From a bacterium (GTDB lineage: Bacteria > Patescibacteriota > Minisyncoccia > Phycocordibacterales > UBA5272), in the NCBI GenBank assembly GCA_027482685.1, contig JAIXVU010000001.1:64910-128909 (forward strand): a DNA stretch of 64,000 nucleotides, read 5' to 3'. Numbering within the stretch: the first letter of the stretch is position 1; the number at the start of each line of letters is the position of its first letter. The notes under the pieces were generated by a model. It had not been told where the DNA came from. It searched no databases and saw only the letters and a list, made by a program, of their open reading frames with translations. Shown here piece by piece: positions 33,009 through 63,993 of this stretch. Both the position numbers and the translations under genes were made by a program.

Positions 33009-33029
33009 CCAACTCGTGCGGAGTTCTGA

Positions 33030-33048: not shown

Positions 33049-33213
33049 CGTATGAGAGCTCTATACAGTTAATGCATAGCTACTGAGTGTAGCCAGCCAA
33101 ATCTAAAAAGTACCCCAAAAGGGTACTTTTTAGATTTTCCCATTATTACACTTCTTGCACTAAACTAATGACATTAGAGTTAAATTCAATGTTAAAACCT
33201 TCTGCGAGTTTGC

Positions 33214-35758: not shown

Positions 35759-35760
35759 TT

Positions 35761-36159: not shown

Positions 36160-36170
36160 TAACCTTAATT

Positions 36171-38492: not shown

Positions 38493-38513
38493 AATCTTGA
38501 CATTATAGCACTT

Positions 38514-41106: not shown

Positions 41107-41111
41107 AGAAA

Positions 41112-42578: not shown

Positions 42579-42591
42579 AATTATATCACTT

Positions 42592-44004: not shown

Positions 44005-44209
44005 TGTGAGAGATTTATTTGTCTACAAAAATGCCTTAGCAAAAGACCTTTTATGCGATATAATCAATAGATTAATACAAGAGTATTAAGAGAAAAAATT
44101 TGCAGTAGCCTAACCCTTTAAGTAATTAAAGGTATGGTGAAAAAGTCCTATCAGATCAAAAACCCCATCATGTGGGCTTTGCTCTGATAGGCCATATCTG
44201 GAAACGGAT

Positions 44210-45040: not shown

Positions 45041-45422
45041 TATCGCCAACTACATTTGACGGCATATTTAATGGATCAACGGTATCAATAGTAATTGAAG
45101 TAATTGGTACAAACGGTTTCTTCCAAAAATCTTTTGGTCGTGGTCGCATGTACTCTTTTTTTTGGTTATCAAGATAATACTGGATAGCTCTCAAACTTCC
45201 ATTATTGATATGAGAGATAAGTTTACTCTCTGCAAGATCTATAATAGAGTCAGTCCCACACAAAAGAGCAAGATCTACACTTTCTTGAAACTCTGGATCA
45301 TCTTTACACCAACGATAGATTGTATTCCTCGCTAATCCTACTTTCTCGCAGGCGAGAGAAATATTGGGAACGGTGTTAAGTTGTTCAAGAAAAGCTTTTA
45401 CCTTTTTATCCTTTTTCGCCAT
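45015..45422 (-). CDS. HTH-domain protein, possibly a terminase-small-subunit-like or regulatory protein
   Basis: The N-terminal HTH is NISLACEKVGLARNTIYRWCKDD. The gene overlaps the ParB-MTase gene by 17 nt. Confidence 0.45.
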   Translation of the reverse strand: MAKKDKKVKAFLEQLNTVPNISLACEKVGLARNTIYRWCKDDPEFQESVDLALLCGTDSIIDLAESKLISHINNGSLRAIQYYLDNQKKEYMRPRPKDFWKKPFVPITSITIDTVDPLNMPSNVVGDINDDDYGD

Positions 45423-46692: not shown

Positions 46693-46696
46693 AAAA

Positions 46697-47113
46697 TTAT
46701 TTGTTTAGATCTACTCCACCTAGCTGTAAGAACATTTTTATGTGTCCAATTTTACCATCGCCAGTTGCTTGCTCATAAAGTGAATTAATGACTTCAGGAA
46801 TTCTATCCTTAATCCATCCAGAGATGTTCTTTTGAACAAAGAACGCAAACTTTGGGTGATGCTTCCAGTCTGTTAAGGTGTCTTCGCAAACTCCGACTGA
46901 TGAAGCAAATTCTTTCTGAGTTTTCATCTCGCGAAAATCTCGTGGAGTTGAGTACCACTCAGTGAATTTTAGGAATTCAGGCACATTGTAAATATCTGAG
47001 ATAACTATCGAAATATCGGAGTAAATCGGATTTGTTTCTGTAACCTTTGCACTGTCTGTATGAATTTCTTTCATATGTTTATTAGAATTAACTTTGAATA
47101 AACAAAAGCTCAC
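46697..47113 (-). CDS. Hypothetical protein with a possible HTH (KEFASSVGVCEDTLTDW)
   Basis: ORF only, in tandem with the methyltransferase gene. Confidence 0.4.
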   Translation of the reverse strand: MSFCLFKVNSNKHMKEIHTDSAKVTETNPIYSDISIVISDIYNVPEFLKFTEWYSTPRDFREMKTQKEFASSVGVCEDTLTDWKHHPKFAFFVQKNISGWIKDRIPEVINSLYEQATGDGKIGHIKMFLQLGGVDLNK

Positions 47114-47279
47114 GCACCTTGGGTAAGGTTGCGCGAGCTTTTAGTTAAAAAATCACTCGAGATATTGCTTTTGTATACTCATTATATCACACTAATTTTT
47201 CATGCAAGTTTCTTATTTTCAAAGGGTTTTTTAGAATTTTCGCATTAAAAATTCTGTTTGAGAATAGTTTTAAAAAGAT

Positions 47280-47903
47280 CTATACCTGTTCCTTTTCTTG
47301 TTCGTATCTTCGTCTTCTTTCGTCGAGAGTTTCTTCTTCAAATTCCCAATAAACTGGACCTTGTGCAGGATAAGCAACACCTAACGCCATTTGAGCTGCT
47401 TTAGATAGACTCATTGTTACATCATTAAATAGAACATTGGAACCTTCTGTTAAAGTACACGTAACTTCTGGATTTCTTGTGAAAGTAAATACACTGCCAA
47501 CAGGTAATTCATAAGCTTCAAAATCGTATCTCTTTGTGTACCGTCTTGCTTTGATAAGCGCTTTCTTGTCCTCCTCATATTCAACGATATCTCCTTGTGG
47601 AGTAACTTCTCTAACTTCAGCTAATTTAAGTGCAGCAACAACTCGTTCAGGTGTTTCAGTAAAGAACTCTCTGTTCTCAGCAACTCTTGTTCTTCCAAAA
47701 GCTTCATGTAATTTTCTTTCAACGAAATCCATATCATTTACTTCCGAAGCATAGAAAACTTCAAAAGGAAGAGGTACACCTGAAGCTCTAGAAAGCTCCT
47801 TTACTCTTCTATCGAGGTCATTAGTCTTTCCAATCTTTATGTACCCAGGCATTGCCACGTTAGTTAAAATATAGATGATATTCATATTCAGTAATACTAC
47901 CAT
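47280..47903 (-). CDS. GIY-YIG nuclease-family protein (T5orf172/DUF4357-like)
   Basis: NIIYILTN...GYIKIGKTNDLDRRVKEL is the GIY-YIG core. The likely start is at MNIIYIL. Confidence 0.6.
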   Translation of the reverse strand: MVVLLNMNIIYILTNVAMPGYIKIGKTNDLDRRVKELSRASGVPLPFEVFYASEVNDMDFVERKLHEAFGRTRVAENREFFTETPERVVAALKLAEVREVTPQGDIVEYEEDKKALIKARRYTKRYDFEAYELPVGSVFTFTRNPEVTCTLTEGSNVLFNDVTMSLSKAAQMALGVAYPAQGPVYWEFEEETLDERRRRYEQEKEQV

Positions 47904-48282
47904 AAAAACCCTTCCATATAGTTATACTTATATCTATATGGAACAATATATACATACAAGAAAAGAAGAAGATGAATTAGACTATTTAGCAGAGATATAC
48001 GTGTCAGTATATTTAGAAAATGAAAAAAGTAGATCTTTAGCGAAATTGAATTCTAACGTAGCTAAAAAGCAAGAATCTAATAGTTACCTTACCCAAAATA
48101 GTGACACTAAGCCGTAAATTAATTTTATGTAAAAAGTGTCACTTTTGTCACTTTTTATGAACAACAAAGATAAAAGAAATCCAAATAACTGGACTAAAGA
48201 AGAAACAGATAACATTGTTAATGCCTTCAAATGGCTTATTGAACAAGACAAAATACAGAACCCAAATCTATATAAAAATAAG

Positions 48283-48301
48283 CGCTCGGAGAGCGTCGAA
48301 A
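48283..48301 (+). repeat. Right copy of the 19-bp direct repeat CGCTCGGAGAGCGTCGAAA
   Basis: Identical to 33030..33048. Confidence 0.6.
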
Positions 48302-48388
48302 AGTTAAGTTAATAATTAACAAAAAAGCATTACAGGTCTTGACCGTACTTTTTCTGAGCACGTGCCTCTCAGCTGGTATACTTAAATA

Positions 48389-49094: not shown

Positions 49095-50531
49095 GTGGTT
49101 ATGAAAAAGAATTCCTCTCCATGGTTACACCAACTCAATAGAACACGAGAGCCCGTAGTGATAGACAAGAATATCTCCACAGATATCACTATTGTTGGTG
49201 GAGGTATCGCAGGCGTTACTACTGCATACACTCTACTTCGAGATACAAAATATGACGTTGTGCTAATTGATAGCAATCTCATCGGTCACGGTGCAACTGG
49301 ACATAACGCTGGGCAACTTACTACCTATTTCGAAAGACCGTTGTCTGATATTGCGTCACAGTTCGGCGTAGAACTAACCTGTGAAGCTCAAAAAAATGTA
49401 GAATCTGCGTGGCTAGAATTAGATACTATTCAGCGAGAGGTAGGACTAAAAACCCCAATATACAAATTCACTGGTTATGCAGGCATGACGAAGCTCTCTC
49501 ATGTGTTGTTACGTCTTGCTGATAACATGATACGGTATGATGGAGGAATTCCTATAGAAAAAATGCTAATCGCGGATGATTTTGAATTTTTAGATCAGAT
49601 ACCTACTGTTTTTTCTCACCTCTATGAGATAACCAGCAAGCAAAATATACAAAAGATGTTAGAAACAGACAATGACGACTATGTTGCCCTACTTGTCTAT
49701 CCAAAAGGAGCAACTAACAGCGCTAAGATATGTGAAGAGCTGATTGAATATATGCTCACAACATACAAAGACAGATTCCATGTGTATGAAAGAACTCCAG
49801 CTAATACTATTATTCTAGAAAAAGAACATACTCTTATTGAGATTAATTTGAAGAAAGATGAGATGTTGGTTAATGACGCTACTCCAGACTTTACAATGCT
49901 AGCAAAGAAAATCATTTTATGTACGAATGGGTTTGAAGGTTTTAAGATTATCAATAACTTCGGTAAAGACATAGATGGTAAATTCCATCATCAGCTGCAT
50001 GGCCGTGTTAACTTCATGTCTGCATACTTAGACACTCTAGAAAAAGACCCTGTTGCTATAAGTTACTTTCCAAAGAACTCATCAATTGATGCACCTAAGG
50101 ACACTATAACTGGAGAGCAGTATTTCTATATCACCAGGAGACCTCACATGCACGATGGAGTTGAGATGGGGCTCATATCTACCGGTGGACCAGAAAGAAT
50201 TCTGCGAGATGATGAGAAGTACGACAGGAATAATCTGTGTGAAGTATGGGCCGAGCATGATATCGACACCTTTCTAAAAAAGAATTATAAAAAGTATCCT
50301 GGTGAAAAAGTACAATATCAATTTTGCTGGCATGGCCTTCTTGGGTATACCACTACTGGACTACGTCTCATTGGTGAAGAACCTTTAAATAGAACATTAC
50401 TCTATAACCTAGGGTGTAATGGTATAGGAATAATGCCTTCCATTTATGGCGCAAAAAGAATATCGCAAATACTACTAGGAATACCACAACCTCCGAGTAT
50501 CTTCGATCCAAAAATGAATACAGAGGAATAA
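49095..50531 (+). CDS. FAD-dependent oxidoreductase (DAO/glycine-oxidase-like family)
   Basis: The N-terminal dinucleotide-binding motif is ITIVGGGIAGVTTAYTL. The size is 478 aa. Confidence 0.65.
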   Translation: MVMKKNSSPWLHQLNRTREPVVIDKNISTDITIVGGGIAGVTTAYTLLRDTKYDVVLIDSNLIGHGATGHNAGQLTTYFERPLSDIASQFGVELTCEAQKNVESAWLELDTIQREVGLKTPIYKFTGYAGMTKLSHVLLRLADNMIRYDGGIPIEKMLIADDFEFLDQIPTVFSHLYEITSKQNIQKMLETDNDDYVALLVYPKGATNSAKICEELIEYMLTTYKDRFHVYERTPANTIILEKEHTLIEINLKKDEMLVNDATPDFTMLAKKIILCTNGFEGFKIINNFGKDIDGKFHHQLHGRVNFMSAYLDTLEKDPVAISYFPKNSSIDAPKDTITGEQYFYITRRPHMHDGVEMGLISTGGPERILRDDEKYDRNNLCEVWAEHDIDTFLKKNYKKYPGEKVQYQFCWHGLLGYTTTGLRLIGEEPLNRTLLYNLGCNGIGIMPSIYGAKRISQILLGIPQPPSIFDPKMNTEE

Positions 50532-51114: not shown

Positions 51115-52074
51115 TTGAAGATCAGCTTTAAGAAGTCACATTGTGATGTCTGGTCTTTGCTATACTTACTCTACATGGACACATCTAAGAACAACTCTCA
51201 TATAACACAGACACTTGTTATCTGTATTATTTTTGCATGTGGTGGATATCTCTATTATCAGACACATAGTGTATGCAACTTCCCGATACAATATTCAGTT
51301 GGTGAAGTAGATAGCCGTTTCAAAATTTCTCGCACAGAAGTACTTGAAGTTATAGATACTGCAACTAAAATCTGGGAGACACCAACTGGCAGTAATCTTT
51401 TCGAATATAATCCAGAGGGTAAGCTTAAGATAACTATGATCTACGACGAGAGACAAGAAGCAACAGAAAAAAGAAAAACACTCGAAGAGAATACAGAGAT
51501 ACTCAAAAATCAAGCAAAAAGTGTTCAAGATAGATATAAAAAGTTAGAAGCTGATTTTGATAACGAGCAAGCAGAGTACGAAGCTCTTCTTGTGGAGTAT
51601 AAACGTAATGAAGCGACCTATAATCAAACAGTGCAGTATTGGAATACACGCGGTGGTGCACCAGAAGCAATTTATGAAAGTCTACAACAACAAAAACAAT
51701 CACTTTCAAATACCTATGAAGCTGTTGAGTCAAAGCGTCAATCTGTTAATGCTAAAGTAAATGAGATTAATGCTTTTATGTCAGAATATAATAATATAGC
51801 AGAAAAAGTAAATACAACAATTGATGTAATAAATGAAGACGCGGGTCGAGAGTTTCAAGAAGGAACGTATACACCAAAGACTAAAATAATAACAATCTAT
51901 GAGTTCAGTGATAGGACTAAACTCTTGCGTGTCCTTGCCCATGAACTAGGTCACGCTCTTTCTCTTGATCATAACCCGAACCCAGAGTCCATTATGTACG
52001 AGTTAAATAAAAGCAATACTCTAACCGCATCGAAAGAAGACATAGACTCCCTAAAAGCACTATGCAAACTATAG
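51115..52074 (+). CDS. Matrixin-like zinc metalloprotease with a central coiled-coil (the likely start is the internal MDTSKN...)
   Basis: HELGHALSLDHNPNPESIMY has the form HExxHxxxxxH...M (zincin/metzincin-like). A TM/signal sequence is present at the N-terminus. Confidence 0.6.
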   Translation: MKISFKKSHCDVWSLLYLLYMDTSKNNSHITQTLVICIIFACGGYLYYQTHSVCNFPIQYSVGEVDSRFKISRTEVLEVIDTATKIWETPTGSNLFEYNPEGKLKITMIYDERQEATEKRKTLEENTEILKNQAKSVQDRYKKLEADFDNEQAEYEALLVEYKRNEATYNQTVQYWNTRGGAPEAIYESLQQQKQSLSNTYEAVESKRQSVNAKVNEINAFMSEYNNIAEKVNTTIDVINEDAGREFQEGTYTPKTKIITIYEFSDRTKLLRVLAHELGHALSLDHNPNPESIMYELNKSNTLTASKEDIDSLKALCKL

Positions 52075-53151
52075 TCGCACCGTCTCTTGTAAAACTGGTT
52101 CTTCTACACGCACAATGGTAAATGTAAGCCGTCCAACAATACGCTTGCTATCAGCTTTTATTGTTACCCGCCATAGACCTTCTGCGACATTATTTTTGTA
52201 TGAATACGCTCTATACCCTCCCACTCTCCCTCCTTCACTTATATATGGTATAACTGTGTTTGATACCCATTTTTTCTTATCCTCATCGTAATATTCCCAA
52301 ACCTGAGTAAGTGGAGCGGTGACCTTAGTTGGAGCTTTGACAGTAGCCAGGAAATATACACCTGTGTCATCGCTACTCATATGATACACAGGCCGAGACC
52401 AAAAACGCGGGATGAAATGTTTCTTGGCAACCTCACGCTCAACTATAAAGTCTGCCCCATCGCGTACAACAGAGTGGTATACCCCAGAACTTCCAAGTGA
52501 GAGCGGTACAGCAGGTAGGACATTCAAAAAGTAGAGCATACCTACAAACATAGGTATACCTATTGCAAGAGCATATCCCCTACCGGCTTCATGAGTTGCA
52601 ACTTCTGATCTATTCTTAAGAATGGATATGTATATAAGTCCTATTACTACACTAAGTATCATGCTACCTAAAAATACGAGATCATTTTGAATACTAAGTA
52701 ATATTGGTAATGTGAAAATAATATAAAATAAAAGTGCAACGAAAAGTACAGCAATATCTAATGTAAAACGATATTTATGAGACCCTATCATTTCATTTGA
52801 AATACTACAGATGAGCAATATGACAAGAAATGGCCATGACACTGAAAATGCTGCTCCGCGTATAGCATAGACAAACACAAATGAAAGCGCGGACCCTGAG
52901 AGATATGCAATACAAAATGTAAGCGTGGAGTATACCCTCTGTTCAAGAGCACTTGCTGTGTTACGTGAAGCAACCCATTCACGCACCACGATAAGTACAG
53001 CAATTGACGATATGTATGCAAGCCCAATATAGCGAGTGAGAGCATCGCCAATATCAGGAAGCAGTATCATGTCGATAGTGAACCCTATAACAAAAAGTAT
53101 CGTCGTAGCATGCTTAGTATATGTTGAAAGTGAAAAGAGCTTACGATACAT
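52069..53151 (-). CDS. Hypothetical polytopic membrane protein with a C-terminal soluble beta-rich domain
   Basis: Seven or eight hydrophobic helices are followed by a domain of about 120 aa. Confidence 0.5.
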   Translation of the reverse strand: MYRKLFSLSTYTKHATTILFVIGFTIDMILLPDIGDALTRYIGLAYISSIAVLIVVREWVASRNTASALEQRVYSTLTFCIAYLSGSALSFVFVYAIRGAAFSVSWPFLVILLICSISNEMIGSHKYRFTLDIAVLFVALLFYIIFTLPILLSIQNDLVFLGSMILSVVIGLIYISILKNRSEVATHEAGRGYALAIGIPMFVGMLYFLNVLPAVPLSLGSSGVYHSVVRDGADFIVEREVAKKHFIPRFWSRPVYHMSSDDTGVYFLATVKAPTKVTAPLTQVWEYYDEDKKKWVSNTVIPYISEGGRVGGYRAYSYKNNVAEGLWRVTIKADSKRIVGRLTFTIVRVEEPVLQETVRL

Positions 53152-53160
53152 ACACGTTAA

Positions 53161-54168
53161 TTACTCTATAGTACCTACATATATTGCAATTACTGCGGTC
53201 CATCCATGTACATGTGATATATCAATAAGGTAGCGCTTAGCGAGAAGAAGCTCAATATGCTTTGATGTAAAAAACAAAGGATATTCTTTTGTCAGCCCCT
53301 CAATGAATACTTGCTCTTTTGATGTAGTATGAATACCTGTGGCTTTAATAAGCAACCCTTGGCGGATAATCTCAAGAATATCATCATACAATGCTTGAGC
53401 ATCAATACCTCTGTGTTCAATATCAGCAAGAATTGTGACAAGCGATGAAGTGTCTTTTTTGCATAATGCTGTTATGACTTCAAAAAGCTTCGCCTTGTGT
53501 GAAGTTCCTAAGAAATTCTCAACTAGCTCAGGATCGATTTTCTTTTCTGAAATGCGAAGAACTTGTTCTAGTACCCCAAGAGCATCACGATATGATCCAT
53601 TACCACGACGTGCAATTAAGGTAGCCGATGATTCATCAAGCGTGTATCCTTCTTGCTTTGCAACGTAGATGAGTTGATTACGAAGGACCTCTACTGTTGG
53701 CTGGTTGAATACAATTTTTTGACATCGAGAAACAATAGTCTCTGGAAGTTTATCAGGATCAGTAGTAGCAAGAATAAAAATGACATGTGCAGGCGGTTCT
53801 TCAAGAGTTTTAAGAAAAGCATTTGCTGCTTCTTTTGTGAGCATGTGCGCTTCATCAATGATATATACTTTGTAACGGCTAGAGAAAGGTTGGGTACGCA
53901 CAGCTTCGCGTAAATCACGAATGTTATCAATTAGACGATTACTTGCCGCATCAATTTCAATGATATCTTCATCATTTGAGCCAACACTTTTAGCGAAAAT
54001 TCTTGCAACAGAGGTCTTCCCTGTTCCACGACCACCACAGAAAAGGTATGCATGAGCTATTTTATCCTGCTCAATGCTTTTCTTAAGTAACGATACGAGA
54101 GCATCCTGCCCAACAACACTATCAAAACTCTGCGGACGGTATTTACGATACAGGGCGAGATGATTCAT
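53161..54168 (-). CDS. dnaX: DNA polymerase III clamp-loader subunit (gamma/tau-like, short form)
   Basis: The N-terminus LYRKYRPQSFDSVVGQ, Walker A GGRGTGKTS, and the IDEAH and SRC motifs of AAA+ clamp loaders are present. Confidence 0.7.
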   Translation of the reverse strand: MNHLALYRKYRPQSFDSVVGQDALVSLLKKSIEQDKIAHAYLFCGGRGTGKTSVARIFAKSVGSNDEDIIEIDAASNRLIDNIRDLREAVRTQPFSSRYKVYIIDEAHMLTKEAANAFLKTLEEPPAHVIFILATTDPDKLPETIVSRCQKIVFNQPTVEVLRNQLIYVAKQEGYTLDESSATLIARRGNGSYRDALGVLEQVLRISEKKIDPELVENFLGTSHKAKLFEVITALCKKDTSSLVTILADIEHRGIDAQALYDDILEIIRQGLLIKATGIHTTSKEQVFIEGLTKEYPLFFTSKHIELLLAKRYLIDISHVHGWTAVIAIYVGTIE

Positions 54169-54227
54169 GGGAAAAGTATATCATGTTTACTTTTGTTGGT
54201 GTTGGAAACGGAAACAATCGTAGTGTT

Positions 54228-54257
54228 GTTGACATATACTACTACAGTATGTATAAT
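54228..54257 (+). promoter_or_regulatory. Sigma70-like promoter TTGACA-N18-TATAAT
   Basis: TTGACA lies at 54228-54233 and TATAAT at 54252-54257, about 30 nt upstream of an RBS-bearing small ORF. Confidence 0.45.
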
Positions 54258-54284
54258 GCAATTCCACTTTTGAAGGAGTTTGCA

Positions 54285-54566
54285 ATGATTCACAAAGACG
54301 GAAATCTTGGCATCTCTTTTGAAAGCCAAGAACTTGTTGTTCATGAGTTCGTTCCAGATGTGCCATGGTGGCCAGAACATGGTTCGTGGCGTGAAGTTGC
54401 TCGGTGTACGGAAGTGAAACAATGGGATGAATGTAGTTATTCCAAGCTACTCACTGACCAGTACCTTCAAGATATGATTACGTGGCACTTTATTGACCAG
54501 GTAACTCCTACCCTCACCGGGCAGGAGTTTTTTTATACTTACTCTATATTTGACGTTAACCATTGA
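54285..54566 (+). CDS. Hypothetical small protein (94 aa)
   Basis: The Shine-Dalgarno GAAGGAG lies 7 nt upstream of the ATG at 54285. The longer annotated ORF from 54183 is probably an extension. Confidence 0.4.
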   Translation: MIHKDGNLGISFESQELVVHEFVPDVPWWPEHGSWREVARCTEVKQWDECSYSKLLTDQYLQDMITWHFIDQVTPTLTGQEFFYTYSIFDVNH

Positions 54567-55645
54567 GAAACTTTTTCTTCTACTTCTTTTGCGTTAGTAC
54601 ATTCCATGAGTTCCATACGAAGTTCTTTTGCACCATCAAAACCATTAACATATGCTTTGTAGTGTTTCTTCATAATAGCGAAGCTCTTGATGTCTCCTAA
54701 CTTCTCTTCGTATAATTTTGTATGCTCCACAAGTATCTCTAGTCTTTCCTTCACACTCTTACCTTTGTTATACGCCTCTTCATCAAAGAACCATGGAGTA
54801 CCAAATACTCCACGTCCGATCATTACACCGTTGCAACCTGTCTCGTTAGCAAGCTTTTTACCTTGTGTTACAGAAGTAACATCGCCATTACCTAGAAGTA
54901 TCGTCCCCCCATCTTGTACTTCTCCTGTCATTTGACGAACAAGCGCTACAACTTCGGGCATAAGCTCCCAGTGAGCTGGGACTTTTGACATTTCTTTTCT
55001 CGTACGTAGATGAACAGTAAGAGCTGGGATATTACATTCAAGAATCTTAGGTAGCCATTCCATGAATTCTACTTTGTTGTATCCGATACGGGTCTTAACT
55101 GATACGGGAATATCGCCTGCTCCTTCTTGAGCGGCTCGGATTACCTTTTGTGCCTGTCGCCAGTCTTTGATGTGCGCTGCTCCTGCTCCTTGTTTTTCTA
55201 TACTCTTATCTGGGCATCCCATGTTAATATCTATTCCATCAAAACCAAGTTCACGACATAATGCCGCAGCCTTCTTCATATTCTCAGGAGTAGAGGTAAA
55301 TAATTGCGCAATGATTGGTCTCTCTTTATCAGTAAAAACAAGATCACGCTTAAGAATTTCACGACCGGCACTTGTTAGTCCATCAGCTGATACAAACTCT
55401 GTCCATATAACATCTGGTCCACCACCTTGTTCTCCCATGCGACTATGACGAGCTATCATATCACGGAATACACAGTCTGTAACATCCGCCATAGGAGCAA
55501 GAACGGTAAGCGTCTCACCTTTTGTTAATTTTTCATCTATTAACCTTTGCCAAAAACCACGAACTGGGTTCATGGGAACTTTTTTAATTGTTGTAGGCCT
55601 AACGAGATCTAGTAGATGTCGAATTAGTACGTGTAGAACTTGCAT
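54539..55645 (-). CDS. dus: tRNA-dihydrouridine synthase (DusB-like); the likely start is internal (MNPVRGF...)
   Basis: The TIM-barrel FMN motifs DINMGCP and VHLRTRKEM, and the catalytic Cys context, are present. Confidence 0.8.
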   Translation of the reverse strand: MQVLHVLIRHLLDLVRPTTIKKVPMNPVRGFWQRLIDEKLTKGETLTVLAPMADVTDCVFRDMIARHSRMGEQGGGPDVIWTEFVSADGLTSAGREILKRDLVFTDKERPIIAQLFTSTPENMKKAAALCRELGFDGIDINMGCPDKSIEKQGAGAAHIKDWRQAQKVIRAAQEGAGDIPVSVKTRIGYNKVEFMEWLPKILECNIPALTVHLRTRKEMSKVPAHWELMPEVVALVRQMTGEVQDGGTILLGNGDVTSVTQGKKLANETGCNGVMIGRGVFGTPWFFDEEAYNKGKSVKERLEILVEHTKLYEEKLGDIKSFAIMKKHYKAYVNGFDGAKELRMELMECTNAKEVEEKVSQWLTSNIE

Positions 55646-56438
55646 ATGATGTAGTATCGTCCCCGATTATAGCTTTCTCTGTACCATTTGTAAAACGATA
55701 AAATACTTTGTTTCCAAAACGTGCGTCTAAATATAGTAGTTTTTCTTTTTGAAGTTTACTCTTAAGCGGTTCAGTATCTATAGCACTTACTATTGTTGAC
55801 CAGACAAGCGAAGCATCTGATGATGACGCGACTCTAATCTCAGATTTTGTTTGTTTTGAACGTAGGTATGCATCTCCACGTTCATCAATATAAATCTCAG
55901 TAATAGGAAAAAGCGCTGAACTGATCTTAGTGTGTAAAGTAAAGAGTGCTTGTAGCACTTCAGGTGAAGGTAGAGTTGAAGTACTTGTAATGAGAATTGG
56001 AAGAGTGCTAATATCGTATATTTCCTTGTAAACTACTCCATTAGCACTGATAGCTTGAACATCGTTCTTACGAAATAATGGCGTGTATGGAGTTACGGTT
56101 ATCCGGAGTGTCTGAGGGGTAGGCGGGTAGATGGTTATTGTATCCGTGTTTGGAAGGACTTCACGAATAAGATTTTTTATATCAGTTCTATGATAGGTGA
56201 AAATACTATTCCCAGGGAGAAAGAAAAGAATCTTACGTGTAGAAAGTTCTTGTAAGGTTAAGATAAGATTTTCTTTATAGATATCATCTACTCCTACTAA
56301 GTCATATGTTTTGATAGAGAAAATCGTTGTAAAAAAATAACAAAAAAGAAATGCTATACCTAGAAGTATAATAATAATCCGCGGGAGTAACCTCTTCCAA
56401 AGTAATGCAGAGCGTTTTTTCATCAAATAGATATACAA
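55599..56438 (-). CDS. Membrane-anchored protein with FtsQ/DivIB-like POTRA architecture (tentative)
   Basis: An N-terminal TM helix is followed by a YDLVGVDDIY... beta-rich domain. It sits between dus and serS. Confidence 0.35.
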   Translation of the reverse strand: MYIYLMKKRSALLWKRLLPRIIIILLGIAFLFCYFFTTIFSIKTYDLVGVDDIYKENLILTLQELSTRKILFFLPGNSIFTYHRTDIKNLIREVLPNTDTITIYPPTPQTLRITVTPYTPLFRKNDVQAISANGVVYKEIYDISTLPILITSTSTLPSPEVLQALFTLHTKISSALFPITEIYIDERGDAYLRSKQTKSEIRVASSSDASLVWSTIVSAIDTEPLKSKLQKEKLLYLDARFGNKVFYRFTNGTEKAIIGDDTTSYASSTRTNSTSTRSR

Positions 56439-57710
56439 TTAACTACGAAATGGGGATCCAAGCACTGTTTTACCGTTCATGAATGGTACAAGCACATCTG
56501 GAACACGTATTGTGCCATCAGCCTGCTGATAATTTTCAATAATCGCTGTTAGAAGACGCGGAGTTGCTGCAGCAGTGTTATTAAGGGAATGAGTATATTG
56601 GAGCTTGTCATTATCCTTATATCGAATATTAAGCCGTCGTGTTTGATAATCGTGGAAATAGCTCGCTGAGTGTGTTTCGCGATACTTATTTTGTGATGGC
56701 ATCCATGCCTCTATATCATATTTTTTTACTTGACCCTGTCCAAGATCTCCACCACAATTAATAACAGTGTGATATGGAATGCCTAGCTCTTCCATCATCT
56801 CTTCTGCATGAGCGCGAATCTCTTCATGGAACTTTACTGATGTCTCGTGACTTGCTTCGCAGAGTATAACTTGCTCACACTTATAGAATTCATGTACACG
56901 AACCAGGCCTTTTACATCCTTGCCGTGACTACCTGCTTCTTTTCGAAAACACGGACTCCAAACAATGTATTTTTTTGGAAGAGATGCCTTATCTAACACC
57001 TCATCACTGTGATAGAACATTGTCGCAACCTCTCCAGTGCCTGCCATGTAGTCGTTACCATCTTTATACAAATCATCTTCTCCTTGTGGTAGATATCCAG
57101 TGCCTAGGAGGGCTTCACGTTTAACCAATGATGGGACAAGCATAGGTTCAAAACCCTTTGCCTGCCATCTCTGCATGACGTAGCTCCATATCGCCATCTC
57201 AAGCATTGCTCCATCATTCTTGAGAAAATACCCTCTGAATCCAGCAGTTTTTGTACCACGTTCAAAGTCCACCATAGCATGAGCTTCCATCAGCTCTATG
57301 TGATCAAGTGGAGTAAATGACTTTCCTTCAATATCACCCCAACGCTTGACTTCAACATTATCAGCATCACTTGCTCCTTCAGGGACAGACATATCTGGAA
57401 TGTTAGGCACTGCAAGCATGAGTATACGCCATGACTTCATCACTTCTTCTAATTCTTCTTCTTTTGCTTTTAAGCTCTCTTTTACATTTCGCATCTCATC
57501 GATTAGAGTTGTACGCTCTAATGCCTGTGCTTTTGTGATAGCGTCACTTGCAGCGTTTTGCTTTGCACGGAGATCTTCTACAACTTTTAGGAGTTCTAAC
57601 CGTTTAGAGTCAGCTGCGATGAGATCGTCAACATTGAAAGACATGTGCTTTTTCGTTGCTGCAAGTTTGATGAGGTCACTATTCTCACGAATGAATTTAA
57701 TATCTAACAT
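56439..57710 (-). CDS. serS: Serine--tRNA ligase
   Basis: An N-terminal coiled-coil arm and class II aaRS motifs are present, together with the SerRS-typical sequences (FRKEAGS...; GQGQVKKYDIEAW). The size is 423 aa. Confidence 0.9.
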   Translation of the reverse strand: MLDIKFIRENSDLIKLAATKKHMSFNVDDLIAADSKRLELLKVVEDLRAKQNAASDAITKAQALERTTLIDEMRNVKESLKAKEEELEEVMKSWRILMLAVPNIPDMSVPEGASDADNVEVKRWGDIEGKSFTPLDHIELMEAHAMVDFERGTKTAGFRGYFLKNDGAMLEMAIWSYVMQRWQAKGFEPMLVPSLVKREALLGTGYLPQGEDDLYKDGNDYMAGTGEVATMFYHSDEVLDKASLPKKYIVWSPCFRKEAGSHGKDVKGLVRVHEFYKCEQVILCEASHETSVKFHEEIRAHAEEMMEELGIPYHTVINCGGDLGQGQVKKYDIEAWMPSQNKYRETHSASYFHDYQTRRLNIRYKDNDKLQYTHSLNNTAAATPRLLTAIIENYQQADGTIRVPDVLVPFMNGKTVLGSPFRS

Positions 57711-57778
57711 AATGTGTATAAGTGTAGCATGTTTATAATACCTTATAAAAGTGCACTAGGCACGGTATACTAGGTGAT

Positions 57779-58447
57779 ATGATTATTGACGAAAAAGACG
57801 AAACAATGTATAAAAACATGTCATATGTTACCCCGCATGTATACCGTCATGATACAAGTTACAAACGAATACCTAAAACACTAAGAGAAAAAACTGCTAA
57901 ATGTATTGTGCACTTGCTTGCACTTTTTTTTAATATTGTATTTAAATTTCGATATGGACATCGCGCAATTGTCTTAGAAACAATTGCAGCAGTCCCAGGA
58001 ATGGTTGGGGCGCTCTTCCAACACCTAAAATCACTTCGTCGTATCCAAAAAGATCACGGACGTATACGAGCATTGCTTGATGAGGCTGAAAATGAGCGCG
58101 TACACCTTCTTGTTTATAACCAGATAGCTAAACCAACGACTTTCGAGCGACTACTTATTATCGGAGCACAAATGTTTTTCTTTATATTTTATTTTTGTTT
58201 GTATGCTGTCTCATCGAAAACAGCACACTGCGTCGTTGGATATCTAGAAGAAGAAGCAATTCACAGCTATACAAGATATCATGAACTTGTTGTTATGGGT
58301 ATGCATAAAAATGTACCAGCTACAGAGCTTGCAAAGATGTATTGGAATCTCCCAGATGATGCGCGGTTAACGGACATAATAGATGCAACGATTAAAGATG
58401 AGACACTTCATCGTGATGTAAATCACAAGTTTGCTGATGTACTCTAG
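57779..58447 (+). CDS. Alternative oxidase (AOX; di-iron ubiquinol oxidase)
   Basis: All four AOX di-iron motifs are present: LETIAAVPGMVGA, NERVHL, LEEEAIHSYT and DETLHRDVNH. Confidence 0.8.
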   Translation: MIIDEKDETMYKNMSYVTPHVYRHDTSYKRIPKTLREKTAKCIVHLLALFFNIVFKFRYGHRAIVLETIAAVPGMVGALFQHLKSLRRIQKDHGRIRALLDEAENERVHLLVYNQIAKPTTFERLLIIGAQMFFFIFYFCLYAVSSKTAHCVVGYLEEEAIHSYTRYHELVVMGMHKNVPATELAKMYWNLPDDARLTDIIDATIKDETLHRDVNHKFADVL

Positions 58448-58517
58448 TGTATGCAAATAATGCCCACATCCGATGGATGTGGGCATTTGAAAGATGGACT
58501 TTTCTACTGTGCTATTA

Positions 58518-59171
58518 CTACACACGCATAGTCCAGTTTGTGTTATAACGTTCGGGGTATCGTGGCGTAACCCCGCTATAGAATGCGCGGATATGTTCCA
58601 TGACACTTGCATGATCTTCTGTCGGAGTGATATATCCTCCGATACCTACGTAGCGACAACGGTAGTCGACATATCCGTAGGCAATCGGCACATGTGCCAT
58701 CCGTGCAATATGGTAGAAACCGCTCCTCCATACAGGGGTAAAAGATCTTGTTCCTTCTGGTGCAACCATGACCATCAATGGTCCATCATGTGTTGCAATA
58801 TAATCTGCCATACAGAGAACCTTATCCCCTCGTACATTGCGATTGACGGGAATCATTCCAAGTTTTGTCATGATCGCATGAAATGGGAACCGTGCCAACT
58901 GCTTCTTGCCCATCCAGCGCATTGGTAGACCCAGTTGCAGTCCAGCCAAAAGCATGATCACCACATCGATGTTGCTCGTATGCGGAGCGGCGATCACAAC
59001 GCACTTCTCGATAGATGATGGGAGAATGTTCCTAGCTTCCCATCCCATGATCGACAAGATACGATGAGCGATCCACCCAAGAATGGTGTTGACCCGAGAT
59101 GATTCAAAGATTGTTTTCATCGTACAAAAACCCTTATGATTGAACGTAGGACTTTGCCTACAAAAGAACAA
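58518..59171 (-). CDS. Lysophospholipid (1-acyl-sn-glycerol-3-phosphate) acyltransferase, PlsC family
   Basis: The HxxxxD motif (AAPHTSNIDVV) and the PEGTR motif (APEGTRS) are present. Confidence 0.7.
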   Translation of the reverse strand: MFFCRQSPTFNHKGFCTMKTIFESSRVNTILGWIAHRILSIMGWEARNILPSSIEKCVVIAAPHTSNIDVVIMLLAGLQLGLPMRWMGKKQLARFPFHAIMTKLGMIPVNRNVRGDKVLCMADYIATHDGPLMVMVAPEGTRSFTPVWRSGFYHIARMAHVPIAYGYVDYRCRYVGIGGYITPTEDHASVMEHIRAFYSGVTPRYPERYNTNWTMRV

Positions 59172-59235: not shown

Positions 59236-59922
59236 TTATGCGTCAGGTGCGTCTATATCTGCACTTATCATGTAGTGGTCTATGTGTCCTATACGATGAG
59301 ATGTTATCTTTGCGTGACTATAGCGCAAATCCTTCGTCACAAAGATTTTATCAAGTGACAAGAACATTCTACATGTAGGCCCTAGATGCTCTAAGATATC
59401 AACATGGTCTTCACAGATAGCATCATATGACTGCTTATCTCGTGTTGAGAGAAACTTCTTGTATAGTATCCAAAAGTTAGTATCCCCAAGAATAACCCCC
59501 TTCTTTCCTGGCAGGTCAGGTAGCAGGTTGCGTGTTTGCATATGTCTCACACGCGGAGAAAATGCGTACAAGTGTATAGGGAAAAAGGTAACACCATTGA
59601 TACGATAATCATGACTATGTGTATGCTCTATATCTTCTATAGGGAATCTACTTATAAAGAGTGATACTGACTCTCGCTCACCTGTATGGATAGAGAGACG
59701 ATACTTGTGATCTTCGAAGTGCTCCGCGATAAGATCACAATCTTCAGGAAGCACCTCTTGCAAGAACATTACATCAGCATTTGCATGCTTGAGAACAGGA
59801 ATCACTTCGTCAATATTATCCCTCTGAAATGCATAATGATCCCTCCCTGGGAAATGTTTGATCCAGATGAAGTTACCTATATTCCACGATACTACTTTCA
59901 TATCATCTAACGATAGCGTCAA
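59236..59922 (-). CDS. Endonuclease/exonuclease/phosphatase (EEP) family protein
   Basis: VVSWNIGNF...DVMFLQEV and the C-terminal SDHYMISADI are typical EEP motifs. Confidence 0.65.
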   Translation of the reverse strand: MTLSLDDMKVVSWNIGNFIWIKHFPGRDHYAFQRDNIDEVIPVLKHANADVMFLQEVLPEDCDLIAEHFEDHKYRLSIHTGERESVSLFISRFPIEDIEHTHSHDYRINGVTFFPIHLYAFSPRVRHMQTRNLLPDLPGKKGVILGDTNFWILYKKFLSTRDKQSYDAICEDHVDILEHLGPTCRMFLSLDKIFVTKDLRYSHAKITSHRIGHIDHYMISADIDAPDA

Positions 59923-60286: not shown

Positions 60287-62062
60287 TTAGCCTATTTGTT
60301 CGAGCTTCTTCTCTATCTCTTTTTCGGTAATATCGAGGCGTTTCTTGAATTTTTTTAGTATCATGAGCTCTTCTTTTGTAAGTTCACGCTTCTTCTCAGC
60401 TTTTACAAGGAGTGTATGGAACTCTTCAGTGTCTCGACGAAGTGCAAGTACATTAGTCTTAAGAGTTGTCTCCGCATCAAGCATGGTACGTCTCACTTTA
60501 CGTTTGAATCGTGAGAACTGTACAAACGAATACCAGAGTGTGGCAACTACAAGTGTAGACGCAACAATAATAACAAGTAGTACTGATAGCCAATTCATAA
60601 TAAATACACCGAACCTAAGAATAGGTATACTTTCAAATGTTACGACCTTGCTACTTGTGTAATCACTGACTGCACCTTGTGTTGTTATTGCGCGAACTTT
60701 CATCTCGTATGACCCAGATTTCATACGCGCGAGTAACGCAAGCGAATAGTTACCTTGTACATCTGCATTTGTAGTTTCTGTTATACTGTTGCTATCTTTA
60801 TCAATAAGAGTAACCTCAACTGTTGCAGATGGATATGTCACTCCGGTAATGAGTAATGTATTAGTTAACTCTATATTTTTTGTATAGCTTGTTATTGTTG
60901 GAGGATCAATACCTTCTATTGTATATGTTAGTTCTGTTGAAACTTTGTTACGTGCTTTATCATATGCATTTACAATAACGGTATGTTTACCTACCCCTTT
61001 CTTAGGAAGTGAATATAAGTTAGTTGGTACGTAAGGATATACTACCTCCTTGTCACCATTGATTACAAGACCGATACTTCCAATACCTGAGAGTGTATCT
61101 GTTGCTACAACTTGTATAATTGGTTTCGGATTATATGTCGTAGAACCGTCAGGAAATGTTGCTGTTATCTTTTCAGGATTAACTGTGTCTATTTGAAAAC
61201 GATAGTGCGATACAGGTCCCCAGCCAAGCTGATTCTTAAACTGCACATGCATAAACTGAACGCCGTCATCAGAAACTGTAAACGAACGATTAGAGACTGG
61301 AGGATCATATACTCTCGTTGGGATGTCTTTTTCTTCTTCGCCGTATGAGGTTCGAACTGCTGTAACATCAACTGGAAGATTCCAGTCAAACACTATATCG
61401 CGAGAGCGATACCATGCAGTACTATCTGGGTGGGTTGATGATTTAATAACCGGAACGGCGATATCTGTTTCTACAGCATCAGTACTGTTATTAATATCTG
61501 CAATACCATCTAGAATAAATGTTGCGTTTCCAAGAGTCCTTAGAACATTTGTCGCTTCTCCATCATTTGCTAGAACTTCACCCTTTGATAACGTAACAAT
61601 TCCTTGTCCTTTTTTCTTAACTCTAAAATGTAAACTAACAATCTTACCTTGCGAACCACTAAACCCTGGATTAAGGATTGCGCCTTCTAGGGTTGCTCTA
61701 CCGGACGTATTAGAAAAAGTTGGGTCTTCGGTCCATAGTGTAATGATGGAGCCAATTTTTTTAATAGAAGTAAGTTCAAGTGTCTCAGTAGAAAAAGTAA
61801 TACCAGCTGAAACTGCGTTTATCGGATCTTGGTTACTACTCACGTAGAGGTTAACAGAAAATGTCTCCCCTATCTTATACGATCCTGTCGATGGAGAAAT
61901 GATTAGATTAGCAGCATAGACAGATGTACTTGAATATACAGCAACAATACAAAATAAAATAAACAAGTTCTTACAGAAAAGTCTATGTATACTGCTATGA
62001 AAAAAACTTTTTTGTAAGAAATGTTTTAGTTCGAGTAAGAATGTGTGAACTACAGAATACAT
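60287..62062 (-). CDS. Secreted/membrane-anchored cohesin-domain protein with a C-terminal TM helix and coiled-coil tail
   Basis: A signal peptide, a cohesin-like module (NLIISPSTGSYKIGETFSVNLYVSS...), Ig-like repeats, and a C-terminal TM helix plus a KE-rich tail are present. Confidence 0.5.
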   Translation of the reverse strand: MYSVVHTFLLELKHFLQKSFFHSSIHRLFCKNLFILFCIVAVYSSTSVYAANLIISPSTGSYKIGETFSVNLYVSSNQDPINAVSAGITFSTETLELTSIKKIGSIITLWTEDPTFSNTSGRATLEGAILNPGFSGSQGKIVSLHFRVKKKGQGIVTLSKGEVLANDGEATNVLRTLGNATFILDGIADINNSTDAVETDIAVPVIKSSTHPDSTAWYRSRDIVFDWNLPVDVTAVRTSYGEEEKDIPTRVYDPPVSNRSFTVSDDGVQFMHVQFKNQLGWGPVSHYRFQIDTVNPEKITATFPDGSTTYNPKPIIQVVATDTLSGIGSIGLVINGDKEVVYPYVPTNLYSLPKKGVGKHTVIVNAYDKARNKVSTELTYTIEGIDPPTITSYTKNIELTNTLLITGVTYPSATVEVTLIDKDSNSITETTNADVQGNYSLALLARMKSGSYEMKVRAITTQGAVSDYTSSKVVTFESIPILRFGVFIMNWLSVLLVIIVASTLVVATLWYSFVQFSRFKRKVRRTMLDAETTLKTNVLALRRDTEEFHTLLVKAEKKRELTKEELMILKKFKKRLDITEKEIEKKLEQIG

Positions 62063-63023
62063 AAATAAAAGACAATAAAATAATTATACTTATACCTATC
62101 AGTATACGTGATGAACTTGTTTTTATAGGAAGGTTGTCAACAGGAAGTATCGTCCATGTTGTATACGTATTATTTTCGTAAAAGATTTTTATATGTGTAT
62201 ATGTTGTTCGAGATTGATTATCTAGAATATACAACATAGTATTAACCTCCTTCCATTCGGAATTCTTTACGCGAGTAATATCGTATTCTCCTGTTTCAGC
62301 AACTTCTATTTTTGATACCGGGCGAACTGATTGATCTTCGATGATTGATATATACCATTTATTATCACCAATATATGGATCACGACTTGTAACAACCTGA
62401 AGAGTGTTACTATCTCGATATGATAATTCGTTTTGTACACGAGAATACTCGATAGACTGAGTAGGAACTTCTATGTTACGTGTTTGAGTTGATATAGTAA
62501 GCGGTGTTCCTTTATCATTAAAAAGATACGCACGTGCTTCTGATATGCTAATTGGTGTCATTGTTGAGCCAGCGCGATTAATTGGAATTAAAGTAACGAT
62601 AAACAATAATCCTGGGCGCACTCCGTCATAATACGGACTTCGTACACCTTTGTACCCTCCGGGCATGACGCCTTCAAAAACAAGAGTACTTGTCGTACCG
62701 CTCGTGATTATATTTGAACGTTTTGGTTGAGAGAGCCACAGTGACACAACACTACTACGTGTAGTAATACTCTCAACCTTAAATAAGGTCGCGTCGTATG
62801 TAAACTTCCCTTCAATTGCACCAAGAGCACTATCCTCAGCGTCTAATGAAACAACTACATCAAAGGGCTCACTGTTAGATGCAGACATTTTCGGAACGTC
62901 TAAGATAATAGAAGCTGCACTCCCGCTACTAAAAAGCATAAAGACAAGTAGTAGAGCTATAAAAATAGTAAGTGTTGTTTTTTTCATACGAAATATGTAC
63001 TTAACCTGTCCAGCAGTATGCAA
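61995..63023 (-). CDS. Secreted cohesin-like domain protein with a C-terminal membrane anchor
   Basis: A signal peptide, a cohesin-like beta-sandwich segment (IILDVPKMSASNSEPFDVVVSL) and a C-terminal TM helix are present. It overlaps the next gene, consistent with an operon. Confidence 0.4.
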   Translation of the reverse strand: MHTAGQVKYIFRMKKTTLTIFIALLLVFMLFSSGSAASIILDVPKMSASNSEPFDVVVSLDAEDSALGAIEGKFTYDATLFKVESITTRSSVVSLWLSQPKRSNIITSGTTSTLVFEGVMPGGYKGVRSPYYDGVRPGLLFIVTLIPINRAGSTMTPISISEARAYLFNDKGTPLTISTQTRNIEVPTQSIEYSRVQNELSYRDSNTLQVVTSRDPYIGDNKWYISIIEDQSVRPVSKIEVAETGEYDITRVKNSEWKEVNTMLYILDNQSRTTYTHIKIFYENNTYTTWTILPVDNLPIKTSSSRILIGISIIILLSFIYVFCSSHILTRTKTFLTKKFFS

Positions 63024-63993
63024 GAATACTAAAATCTACTAGATCAATAGACTCATCACGACTTAAATCAACGTTTGGAGGAAACCCGTATCTCTTATAC
63101 CAAAATGCCATGATACTAAAATCAAAAAGATTAACAAAAGAGTCATTATTGATGTCACAATAATATGTACTTATCTTACGAATTCCTATATATACATTTT
63201 TATCACCAACACGAAACTTTTGCACAGAAGAACGAGGTGAGGATAGTGCCATATTTTCTGAACGTACATGAACAGTGTAATCACCAAGTGAAATATCTGT
63301 TGATTTAAGAGTATACGACCATTCACCAGACCCAGAAAGCTTAGTAGTGAAGTGAAGGACAGTATCTATATCTTCAGAAGATATAATGTAAAGTTGAAGA
63401 ACTTGATTAGGCGCCCCTTTCCCACTAAGAGTTATGTAATCTCCGAAACGAACTTCACTTTTATCAATAGCAAGTGTTGGTGCAATAAGGATGTTATCGA
63501 TAACCGTTGTTATTCCCGTAGTAACAACAACAGAAAAAGATTGTAGATCCGTACTTCCACTACCAGGAATTTCTGCACGAACAGAAAAGGTATACGTTCC
63601 TGTGTTTAGATCACGTAATGATGAGGAAAAAAATCCTTCGTTGTTAGTTAGAACCCTGTCTACAACGATACCATTCTTAAGAATAGATACTATGCTATTA
63701 GGGTATGAAGTTCCTCTTAGGAGGACGACTTCAGATCCCGCCTCAATTGTTATGGGAACACCGCTTAGAGGATTAGTTGGTTTGTCATAGAGCGGATACG
63801 ACGGGGCAAGCGTGAGAAGAACCTGAGCAGATACAGTTACACTAGTTTCGAGAGACTCTGGGAGAGCGTGAGTAATCAGAGATTGGCTTACAAGAAGTGA
63901 AAACAGGAGAAAATATGTACGTAGTGAGAAACTACTCATCTGAGCGAGACTTTCTTTGCATTCTACGAAGTCTTTCAATGATAGCTTTATCAT
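63001..63993 (-). CDS. Secreted Ig-like repeat protein with a C-terminal dockerin domain
   Basis: Duplicated Ca-binding dockerin segments DINNDSFVNLFDFSIMA and DLSRDESIDLVDFSILA are present, with an N-terminal signal peptide (the start is possibly internal). Confidence 0.5.
   Translation of the reverse strand: MIKLSLKDFVECKESLAQMSSFSLRTYFLLFSLLVSQSLITHALPESLETSVTVSAQVLLTLAPSYPLYDKPTNPLSGVPITIEAGSEVVLLRGTSYPNSIVSILKNGIVVDRVLTNNEGFFSSSLRDLNTGTYTFSVRAEIPGSGSTDLQSFSVVVTTGITTVIDNILIAPTLAIDKSEVRFGDYITLSGKGAPNQVLQLYIISSEDIDTVLHFTTKLSGSGEWSYTLKSTDISLGDYTVHVRSENMALSSPRSSVQKFRVGDKNVYIGIRKISTYYCDINNDSFVNLFDFSIMAFWYKRYGFPPNVDLSRDESIDLVDFSILAYCWTG

Follow-up and report, generated by a model that had tools for sequence, protein, structure and literature searches.

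Alternative oxidases (AOXs) are monotopic membrane enzymes of the di-iron carboxylate type that oxidise membrane quinol and reduce O2 to water without translocating protons. The subject of this work is an AOX gene at positions 57779..58447 (+) of a 64,000-nucleotide stretch of contig JAIXVU010000001.1, called the window throughout, from a bacterium of the Candidate Phyla Radiation (CPR, Patescibacteria). Bacterial AOXs of about 210-230 amino acids (aa) are found in alpha-, beta- and gammaproteobacteria, in hosts with full respiratory chains and ubiquinone biosynthesis. Among eukaryotes, the trypanosome alternative oxidase (TAO), a mitochondrial enzyme with a long N-terminal arm for which both the quinone and the glycerol-3-phosphate dehydrogenase partner are known, works without complexes III and IV, is fed by a single dehydrogenase and serves redox balance (PMC2820529). 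The mitochondrion-derived AOX of microsporidian mitosomes is kept in drastically reduced parasites without oxidative phosphorylation and has been suggested to work together with a glycerol-3-phosphate shuttle; a role in redox balance is thus described for AOX in respiratory-chain-less microsporidia as well as in bloodstream trypanosomes (PMC2820529). CPR bacteria are commonly regarded as strict fermenters, and electron transport chains are typically lacking in them (PMC8407418, PMC5220378). The known examples of oxygen handling in CPR come from soil, where Saccharibacteria, Parcubacteria and Doudnabacteria have acquired a quinol-dependent terminal oxidase from other bacteria in the form of orphan cyo operons, which occur without quinone-biosynthesis genes and have been read as an adaptation to oxic habitats (PMC8407418; cyo and qNOR also in PMC12931201).

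The AOX of the window shares features with each of these systems. It resembles the proteobacterial AOXs in Pfam family, length and iron-ligand motifs, with 53-59 % identity over residues ~30-222, and they form its nearest outgroup in the tree. Unlike them, the CPR clade to which it belongs is found at a serS-linked locus in sub-megabase genomes and has an extended N-terminus and, at the other end, a conserved DDKxGTxxW tail that is absent from the window copy. With TAO it shares the fold, the six iron ligands and the equivalents of Y220, R118, N161, Y246, W247 and D265, but TAO keeps W151 and R207 where the window copy has R95 and C151. The likeness to microsporidian AOX lies in the retention of the enzyme by a reduced organism, with the difference that a glycerol-3-phosphate partner was not identified here. 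As in the soil CPR bacteria, a predicted quinol oxidase stands without quinone-biosynthesis genes recognised in the ~74 kb covered here; the cyo enzyme, however, is an unrelated multi-subunit, proton-pumping heme-copper oxidase, whereas AOX is a single-subunit, non-pumping di-iron protein. The reading favoured here, with a probability of roughly 60 %, is that the gene was transferred long ago, has been kept vertically since then, and would encode a non-pumping quinol:O2 oxidase used for O2 scavenging and redox balance on scavenged quinone. The role, the substrate and the quinone source are what we infer from comparison, and the activity of this particular copy is likewise predicted.

The coding sequence starts with ATG and comprises 222 aa plus a stop codon, as supported by the list of open reading frames (ORFs), Pfam, homology to TAO and the fold match. 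The first-pass annotation, which was made from the letters alone, had named an AOX on the basis of four di-iron motifs. All four motif strings translate within this frame, and the profile search confirmed the family (PF01786, 212.8 bits against a cutoff of 22.7, E 5.8e-63, profile positions 12-216 of 216 covered). The same profile is the precomputed match for all 120 homologues among the matches listed, and no NCBIfam model matches the window protein. A phmmer search against the PDB sequences returned TAO as the sole match (3vv9/9kun, E ~1e-35), with an identity of 36-37 %. An AlphaFold2 model built from an input alignment of 30 sequences (mean pLDDT 80.7) predicts six long helices. Foldseek aligned this model with the TAO structures 5zdp, 3vv9 and 9kun at query-normalised TM-scores of 0.79-0.80 and a root-mean-square deviation of 2.2 Å over ~204 columns, while the next matches were non-AOX ferritin-like folds with E > 0.5. 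The DNA is 100 % identical in two independent assemblies (SRR16126875, SRR16126878), and since these derive from independent read sets, an assembly error is ruled out. Comparing the window with two other assemblies for single-nucleotide polymorphisms gave zero differences, so no polymorphism was usable for a selection test, and between orthologues the synonymous sites are saturated at a protein identity of ~60 %. Judged by its sequence and its modelled fold, the ORF is a genuine and structurally complete di-iron protein of the AOX family.

The residue map follows TAO closely at the iron site. Motif 1, LETIAAVPGMVGA, lies at 57974..58012 (+) and holds the iron ligand E67 (TAO E123). Just upstream of it, R62 (57962-57964, +) corresponds to R118 in the quinol pocket of TAO. 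Motif 2, NERVHL (58091..58108, +), provides the ligands E106 and H109 (TAO E162/H165), with N105 (TAO N161) belonging to the hydrogen-bond network. In motif 3, LEEEAIHSYT (58244..58273, +), the ligand is E157 (TAO E213), S163 corresponds to TAO T219, and Y164 is the catalytic tyrosine (TAO Y220, plant Tyr-275). Motif 4, DETLHRDVNH (58397..58426, +), contributes E208 and H211 (TAO E266/H269) together with D207 (TAO D265). Thus, the six residues that bind iron, four Glu and two His of the LET, NERxH, LEEEA and DExxH motifs, are all in place, and the hydrogen-bond or second-sphere network is kept as N105, Y188, W189 and D207 (TAO N161, Y246, W247 and D265); the equivalent of TAO W65 falls outside the aligned region. 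In an alignment of 30 clade members, the iron ligands, the catalytic tyrosine, the four network residues and R62 are invariant. The mean identity in this alignment is 67 %, with 63 columns invariant, a sign that the clade is under purifying selection. In the quinol pocket, R62, H150 (TAO H206, plant His-261), E159, A160 and S163 are kept throughout the clade, in line with AOXs that oxidise quinol; at position 163, Ser replaces the Thr of TAO (T219) in all members. Taken together, the sequence and fold features that define AOX are present, residues of the quinol site and the membrane face are partly deviant, and enzymatic activity is a prediction from sequence and model.

Judged from its sequence relatives, the host is a bacterium of the CPR. 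Homologues of the AOX are named 'alternative oxidase [Candidatus Pacebacteria / Paceibacterota bacterium]' and 'Candidatus Parcubacteria', and relatives of the seryl-tRNA synthetase (SerRS) at 80-85 % identity form a dense cloud named Paceibacterota, with contigs of up to 559-775 kb. According to NCBI, Paceibacterota is a synonym of the phylum Minisyncoccota, i.e. of the CPR as a whole, and the record labels of near-identical lineages conflict (Saccharibacteria, Parcubacteria, Pacebacteria, Gracilibacteria), so that the assignment is kept at CPR/Patescibacteria. The related contigs fit sub-megabase genomes, in line with the reduced genome assumed by the first-pass annotation. Its description of the genome as AT-rich holds only in moderation, as the GC content of the window ranges from ~0.31 to 0.45 and mostly lies at 0.36-0.42. 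Several related metagenome-assembled genomes come from river surface water.

The AOX gene occupies a fixed place in this lineage. It is divergent from serS (56439..57710, -; Pfam), which is followed by a syntenic block at 51115..56438 consisting of an M10 peptidase (+) and of DUF2914, DnaX, Dus and a 279-aa hypothetical protein (all -). The same arrangement, with AOX divergent from serS and then a ~280-aa hypothetical protein, Dus, DnaX, DUF2914 and the M10 peptidase, was found in 12/12 related genomes. Five of these are GTDB species representatives (L003-L007), four were reached via AOX matches (L083, L085, L087, L089), and the last three (L099, L100, L101) were picked by SerRS alone with AOX not considered. 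For 25 further SerRS matches, the longest contigs are equal in size to those of the AOX matches, which suggests that the linkage exists in these genomes as well. The orthologue in L101 (9373-9924 of a 494-kb contig) was called at only 183 aa. Since the homologous frame continues upstream to a GTG, a wrongly placed start codon is probably behind this call, and not a truncated gene.

The divergent genes serS and AOX are separated by 68 bp (57711..57778). In this region, a TATAAT at 57734-57739 and a Shine-Dalgarno-like AGGTGA at 57772-57777, 1 nt before the ATG, were seen by eye, and a strict sigma-70 scan found no two-hexamer match there. On the other side, a perfect 13-bp hairpin (58459..58487) separates the convergent AOX and acyltransferase genes. 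Its RNA fold has a free energy of -26.2 kcal/mol and a z-score of -5.35, with 0/200 shuffles being as stable, and it is a probable bidirectional terminator. This hairpin and the Shine-Dalgarno-like site were counted as expression signals in favour of the main reading.

The first-pass annotation had also suggested that the gene might be horizontally acquired. This holds for the distant past and fails for a recent event. The AOX has a GC content of 0.375 and a GC content at third codon positions (GC3) of 0.275, and its codon usage lies at a distance of 0.114 from that of the housekeeping genes; all three values are typical of the genome backbone. The true composition outliers are the PlsC-like neighbour, a secreted-protein ORF with 59 % GC and a low-GC restriction-modification island. 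A neighbour-joining tree was built from 175 columns of 122 sequences (47 from CPR including the window copy, 74 from other bacteria, and the TAO core as outgroup). The CPR AOXs including the window copy are monophyletic in it, with a bootstrap support of 90/100, and their sisters are alphaproteobacterial or other Pseudomonadota sequences. In global alignments, the identity of orthologs to the window is 67-84 % for SerRS, 72-76 % for Dus, 50-59 % for DnaX and 55-64 % for AOX, so that AOX diverges in step with the housekeeping genes. With 55 % identity, L012 is the most distant of the CPR sequences, and it is located on a short contig without serS.

AOX is uncommon outside Proteobacteria, and the first-pass annotation had called it sporadic in bacteria. 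Among the GTDB species representatives, relatives were found at at least 578 loci, of which the best 80 are mostly from Proteobacteria and six from CPR; a predominantly proteobacterial distribution has been reported as well (PMC9540462). That broad survey contained one CPR AOX and read it as a transfer from Proteobacteria, with which the CPR tree agrees. CPR-type AOX is nevertheless represented in a metagenome protein collection, with more than 120 distinct clusters at 90 % identity. Composition, phylogeny and synteny are three independent lines of evidence that identify the gene as an old resident and not a recent import. From the sequences, the data fit one old transfer from a proteobacterium to an ancestor of the CPR lineage, followed by vertical descent at the fixed serS locus. 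A recent horizontal transfer, a proteobacterial contamination or a chimeric assembly would find some footing in the mainly proteobacterial occurrence of AOX (PMC9540462) and in the deviating composition of the downstream acyltransferase gene (GC3 0.48). Set against this are the backbone composition of AOX itself, its identical sequence in independent assemblies, its locus in 12/12 genomes and an identity to the best proteobacterial matches of only 53-59 %. Synteny and composition effectively refute such an origin, and its probability is very close to nil.

The window copy departs from its clade at several positions. At position 95, the codon CGT (58061..58063, +) encodes Arg in place of plant Trp-206 (TAO W151). 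This position is Trp in TAO, in 46/46 CPR sequences and in 72/74 of the other bacterial AOXs, and Arg is also found in two proteobacterial AOXs. At position 151, the codon TGC (58229..58231, +) encodes Cys in place of plant Arg-262 (TAO R207), and the window copy is alone in this, with Arg in TAO and in 120/120 other bacterial AOXs. The offset of 55 between plant and TAO numbering used here was confirmed by Tyr-275 = Tyr-220. Overall, the protein keeps 67/72 family-wide conserved positions, and its departures at positions conserved at 95 % or more amount to five (D37E, A51F, W95R, R151C, L168H), compared to a median of 1 and a maximum of 4 in the 120 other bacterial AOXs. The clade-type N-terminal MIQE...PH extension is present (MIIDEKDETMYKNM..PHV), and the C-terminus ends in ...FADVL without the DDKxGTxxW tail. 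W95, R151 and this tail are retained by every syntenic orthologue inspected. According to a review on plant AOX, the W206F and W206Y mutations abolish activity, Trp-206 is required for membrane fixation, and ubiquinone binding depends critically on residues that include His-261 and Arg-262 (PMC10955580). Based on these comparisons, W95R, R151C and the shortened C-terminus probably alter quinol affinity or membrane anchoring, and the activity of the window copy may be reduced.

Evolutionary rates were compared with neighbour-joining trees of ten syntenic genomes. The terminal branch of the window AOX has a length of 0.325 compared to a median of 0.162 (2.0x), making it the most divergent copy in the clade, and the corresponding ratios of this genome are 1.03x for SerRS, 1.00x for Dus and 1.68x for DnaX. 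Since DnaX is an essential gene and accelerated too, the acceleration of AOX is real but partly genome-wide. A possible explanation of these peculiarities could be that the gene is a decaying or crippled relic in this genome, under relaxed selection after the loss of its electron-input partners and without quinol oxidation, while the function in the lineage as a whole would be real. This would account for the substitutions unique to this copy within its clade, the five departures, the missing tail and the long branch beside unremarkable SerRS and Dus branches; it is also compatible with the lack, at this locus, of the cytochrome b5, FAD_binding_4 oxidase and glycogen genes that neighbour AOX in sister genomes. 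Such decay is nonetheless unlikely, though to be taken seriously. The ORF is intact and of full length, with the iron ligands, the catalytic tyrosine, R62 and the hydrogen-bond network kept. Active microsporidian AOXs naturally lack the equivalent of Trp-206 (PMC2820529), a direct precedent for W95R, and two proteobacterial AOXs carry the same Arg. Furthermore, a remnant of the tail was looked for downstream of the stop codon and not found, which, together with the well-formed terminator, argues for a settled gene structure and not a fresh lesion.

The first-pass annotation considered an AOX unexpected in an organism without a respiratory chain. As far as the window and 10 kb of its left flank reach (~74 kb, a small part of a genome of presumably several hundred kb), this view stands: nothing was recognised there that belongs to a respiratory complex, to quinone biosynthesis or to the classical quinone reductases. 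No relevant redox proteins were found in 10 small ORFs in gaps of the window, and the ~20-kb AOX neighbourhoods of the 12 relatives contain no respiratory or quinone genes either. The flavoproteins of the window, a DAO-family protein and an HI0933-like protein, have no demonstrated link to quinones. A complete aerobic chain with its own quinones could be encoded elsewhere, in which case AOX would be an ordinary branch oxidase, as most of the genome is outside the view and a few CPR bacteria with substantial respiratory capacity have been described (PMC5220378). This is quite improbable given the empty ~74 kb and neighbourhoods, the very small genomes indicated by the related contigs of 559-775 kb and the typical lack of electron transport in CPR (PMC8407418, PMC5220378).

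The DAO-family FAD oxidoreductase (49095-50528, +; 478 aa) is encoded ~7 kb upstream of AOX. It has no NCBIfam equivalog, as only its FAD-binding N-terminus was matched. Its identity is 80-84 % in close relatives and ~48 % across Paceibacterota, Kerfeldbacteria and the Parcubacteria group, with a further match in Nitrososphaera, and it is a widespread, uncharacterised CPR flavoenzyme. As a specific partner of AOX it was rejected, because its homologues occur in CPR far outside the AOX clade and because in the closest relatives it sits elsewhere without AOX.

Two further candidates for electron input were observed in sister genomes. In four of them, a membrane-anchored protein with a cytochrome b5 domain (HPGG motif, N-terminal anchor) is encoded within 6 kb of AOX, together with a conserved multi-pass membrane protein of 142-145 aa. 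This pair lies between DUF2914 and DnaX (L085 4795-5623; L087 3817-4749; L099 15640-16473; L101 15228-16173). Cytochrome b5 domains are unusual in bacteria, and the pair could be part of a redox module. A FAD_binding_4/FAD-oxidase_C protein of 550-590 aa, similar to D-lactate dehydrogenase or glycolate oxidase, is found less than 10 kb from AOX beside Big_13 surface-protein genes (L085 18861-20546; L087 16113-17771; L089 19189-20687; L099 3798-5465). The window has Big_13 genes without this oxidase, and a tblastn search of the window for the cytochrome b5, FAD_binding_4 oxidase, DoxX, MFS and glycogen genes of the sister genomes found none. The linkage of both candidates to AOX may merely be shared synteny.

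These neighbours raise the question of whether the clade, or this copy, uses an altered electron donor, such as menaquinol from a Gram-positive host or a protein like cytochrome b5. In favour of this, quinone-biosynthesis genes are generally lacking in CPR (PMC8407418), cytochrome b5 proteins lie close to AOX in L085, L087, L099 and L101, the clade has an N-terminal extension of ~20-30 residues and a C-terminal tail that are missing from most proteobacterial matches, and R151C changes a reported ubiquinol-binding residue in the window copy. We consider a changed donor improbable, as the quinol pocket is conserved across the clade in the manner of quinol-oxidising AOXs, cytochrome b5 is absent from the window and its linkage elsewhere is possibly general synteny. 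Moreover, AOXs are not known to take electrons from a protein.

Oxidation of a scavenged quinol thus remains the preferred reading. Since CPR bacteria with quinol oxidases have been reported to lack quinone-biosynthesis genes (PMC8407418), and none of these genes was seen in the ~74 kb covered here, a scavenged quinone is the most economical model. In this model, the bacterium would be a fermentative episymbiont with a reduced genome living in oxic water, which would take up quinone from its host along with membrane lipids. A flavoprotein dehydrogenase encoded elsewhere would reduce the scavenged quinone, and AOX alone would do the work of a terminal oxidase, consuming O2 and returning the lipid-soluble carrier to its oxidised form. 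The gain would be protection against O2 and re-oxidation of NAD(P)+/flavin cofactors in oxic habitats, with no energy conserved. Similar reasoning has been put forward for AOX in microsporidia and bloodstream trypanosomes (PMC2820529) and for the cyo operons of soil CPR (PMC8407418). The role in O2 detoxification that the first-pass annotation had proposed is kept here as plausible. Several observations weigh against the model. R151C loses an otherwise invariant Arg reported to be important for ubiquinol binding in plant AOX, W95R loses a Trp whose Phe and Tyr mutants are inactive there, and the terminal AOX branch is twice the clade median while those of SerRS and Dus are at 1.0x. In addition, neither a quinone source nor a quinone-reducing dehydrogenase was found in the visible ~74 kb, the genes for cytochrome b5 and the D-lactate-dehydrogenase-like oxidase are absent from the window, and the DAO-family flavoprotein is not syntenic with AOX and far commoner in CPR than AOX.

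The AOX, predicted to be a second and unrelated quinol oxidase, is fixed at one locus in a CPR lineage from surface-water and other metagenomes, which suggests that oxygen handling via borrowed quinones may be commoner in CPR than thought. As a one-gene system, it offers a very simple case for testing the use of host quinones by CPR cells. More tentatively, and with doubt prevailing, AOX could be a core gene of a CPR lineage that does not make quinones and could form a minimal O2-reducing chain without energy conservation, running on host quinone or on a non-quinol donor of the cytochrome b5-like or D-lactate-dehydrogenase-like kind. If true, AOX would be a previously unrecognised route of CPR into oxic waters, and the R151C/W95R variant would represent a substrate site retuned to the quinone of another host. 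A dedicated study of AOX in Patescibacteria, Saccharibacteria or Parcubacteria was not found in the searchable literature, nor was a description of the CPR AOX clade, its fixation at the serS locus or a second type of orphan quinol oxidase; the sole mention found of a CPR AOX is a single sequence, in passing (PMC9540462). The advance is incremental, because the enzyme family is well known and relatives already bear the name 'alternative oxidase' in GenBank.

The remaining gene content of the window consists of housekeeping, DNA-repair, envelope and mobile-element genes. It includes MarR, an HlyD/AcrB efflux pair, the HI0933-like flavoprotein (7882-9156), a SpoU methylase, an AddAB-like helicase-nuclease, an S41 protease, CysRS, DnaB, RecR, RmuC, SNase and RusA, followed by the type I restriction-modification island with its serine recombinase, ParB-methylase and T5orf172. 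The DAO-family flavoprotein, the M10 peptidase, DUF2914, DnaX, Dus and SerRS lead up to AOX, after which a PlsC-like acyltransferase, a protein of the EEP family and surface proteins with Ig domains, arranged in tandem, are encoded. Among the small ORFs, the ribosomal proteins L27, L9 and L21 were recognised by eye. The 10 kb past the left edge encode GH18, ScpAB, a D-Ala-D-Ala carboxypeptidase, MraY, FtsW, MurG, a GluRS-type synthetase and an M23 peptidase.

The stretch downstream of AOX is variable in every genome examined. In the window, the acyltransferase gene (58518-59171, -; GC3 0.48) and the EEP-family gene (59236-59922, -) are both compositional outliers and are absent from that position in sister genomes, with a 62 % match to the EEP protein elsewhere in L005. 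The strongest composition outlier of the window is a 392-aa ORF at 6497-7675 (-), with 59 % GC and a GC3 of 0.65 compared to a genome GC of ~39 %. It has a signal-peptide-like N-terminus and low-complexity sequence rich in Ala, Gln and Thr, and no Pfam match.

A strongly GC-skewed island of low GC content (0.31-0.36) and ~15.25 kb extends from 33030 to 48304. Direct repeats of 22 nt flank the island, one (CGCTCGGAGAGCGTCGAAACGT) at 33030-33051 and the other, which differs by one mismatch, at 48283-48304, and its start lies directly after a tRNA-Gln gene (32938-33011). Its cargo comprises RusA, a PIN-like ORF, the type I restriction-modification system (HsdR/S/M) with an inserted KAP NTPase, a large serine recombinase, a ParB-N6/N4 methylase and T5orf172. 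Probably a mobile element that integrated here and has att sites, the island explains why the relatives have their genes in another order upstream of the AOX block. Within it, flanked by the serine recombinase gene on one side and by an ORF of 276 aa without a family match on the other, lies a full-length LOOT RNA (Rfam RF03000; 44107-44228, +; 93.2 bits compared to a gathering score of 46.4), for which a literature search found nothing relevant. At 32817-32849, 117 bp upstream of the intact tRNA-Gln gene, 33 nt nearly repeat its 5' half (94 %) and may be a fragment from an earlier integration event.

At the right end of the window, paralogous surface-protein genes with weak matches to the Big_13 Ig domain are arranged in tandem (60287-63993, -), as they are in L096 (59-4696). 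One gene of 559-591 aa comes first, then at least three that each encode exactly 330 aa; the ends of the genes overlap, and the array runs to the end of the contig.

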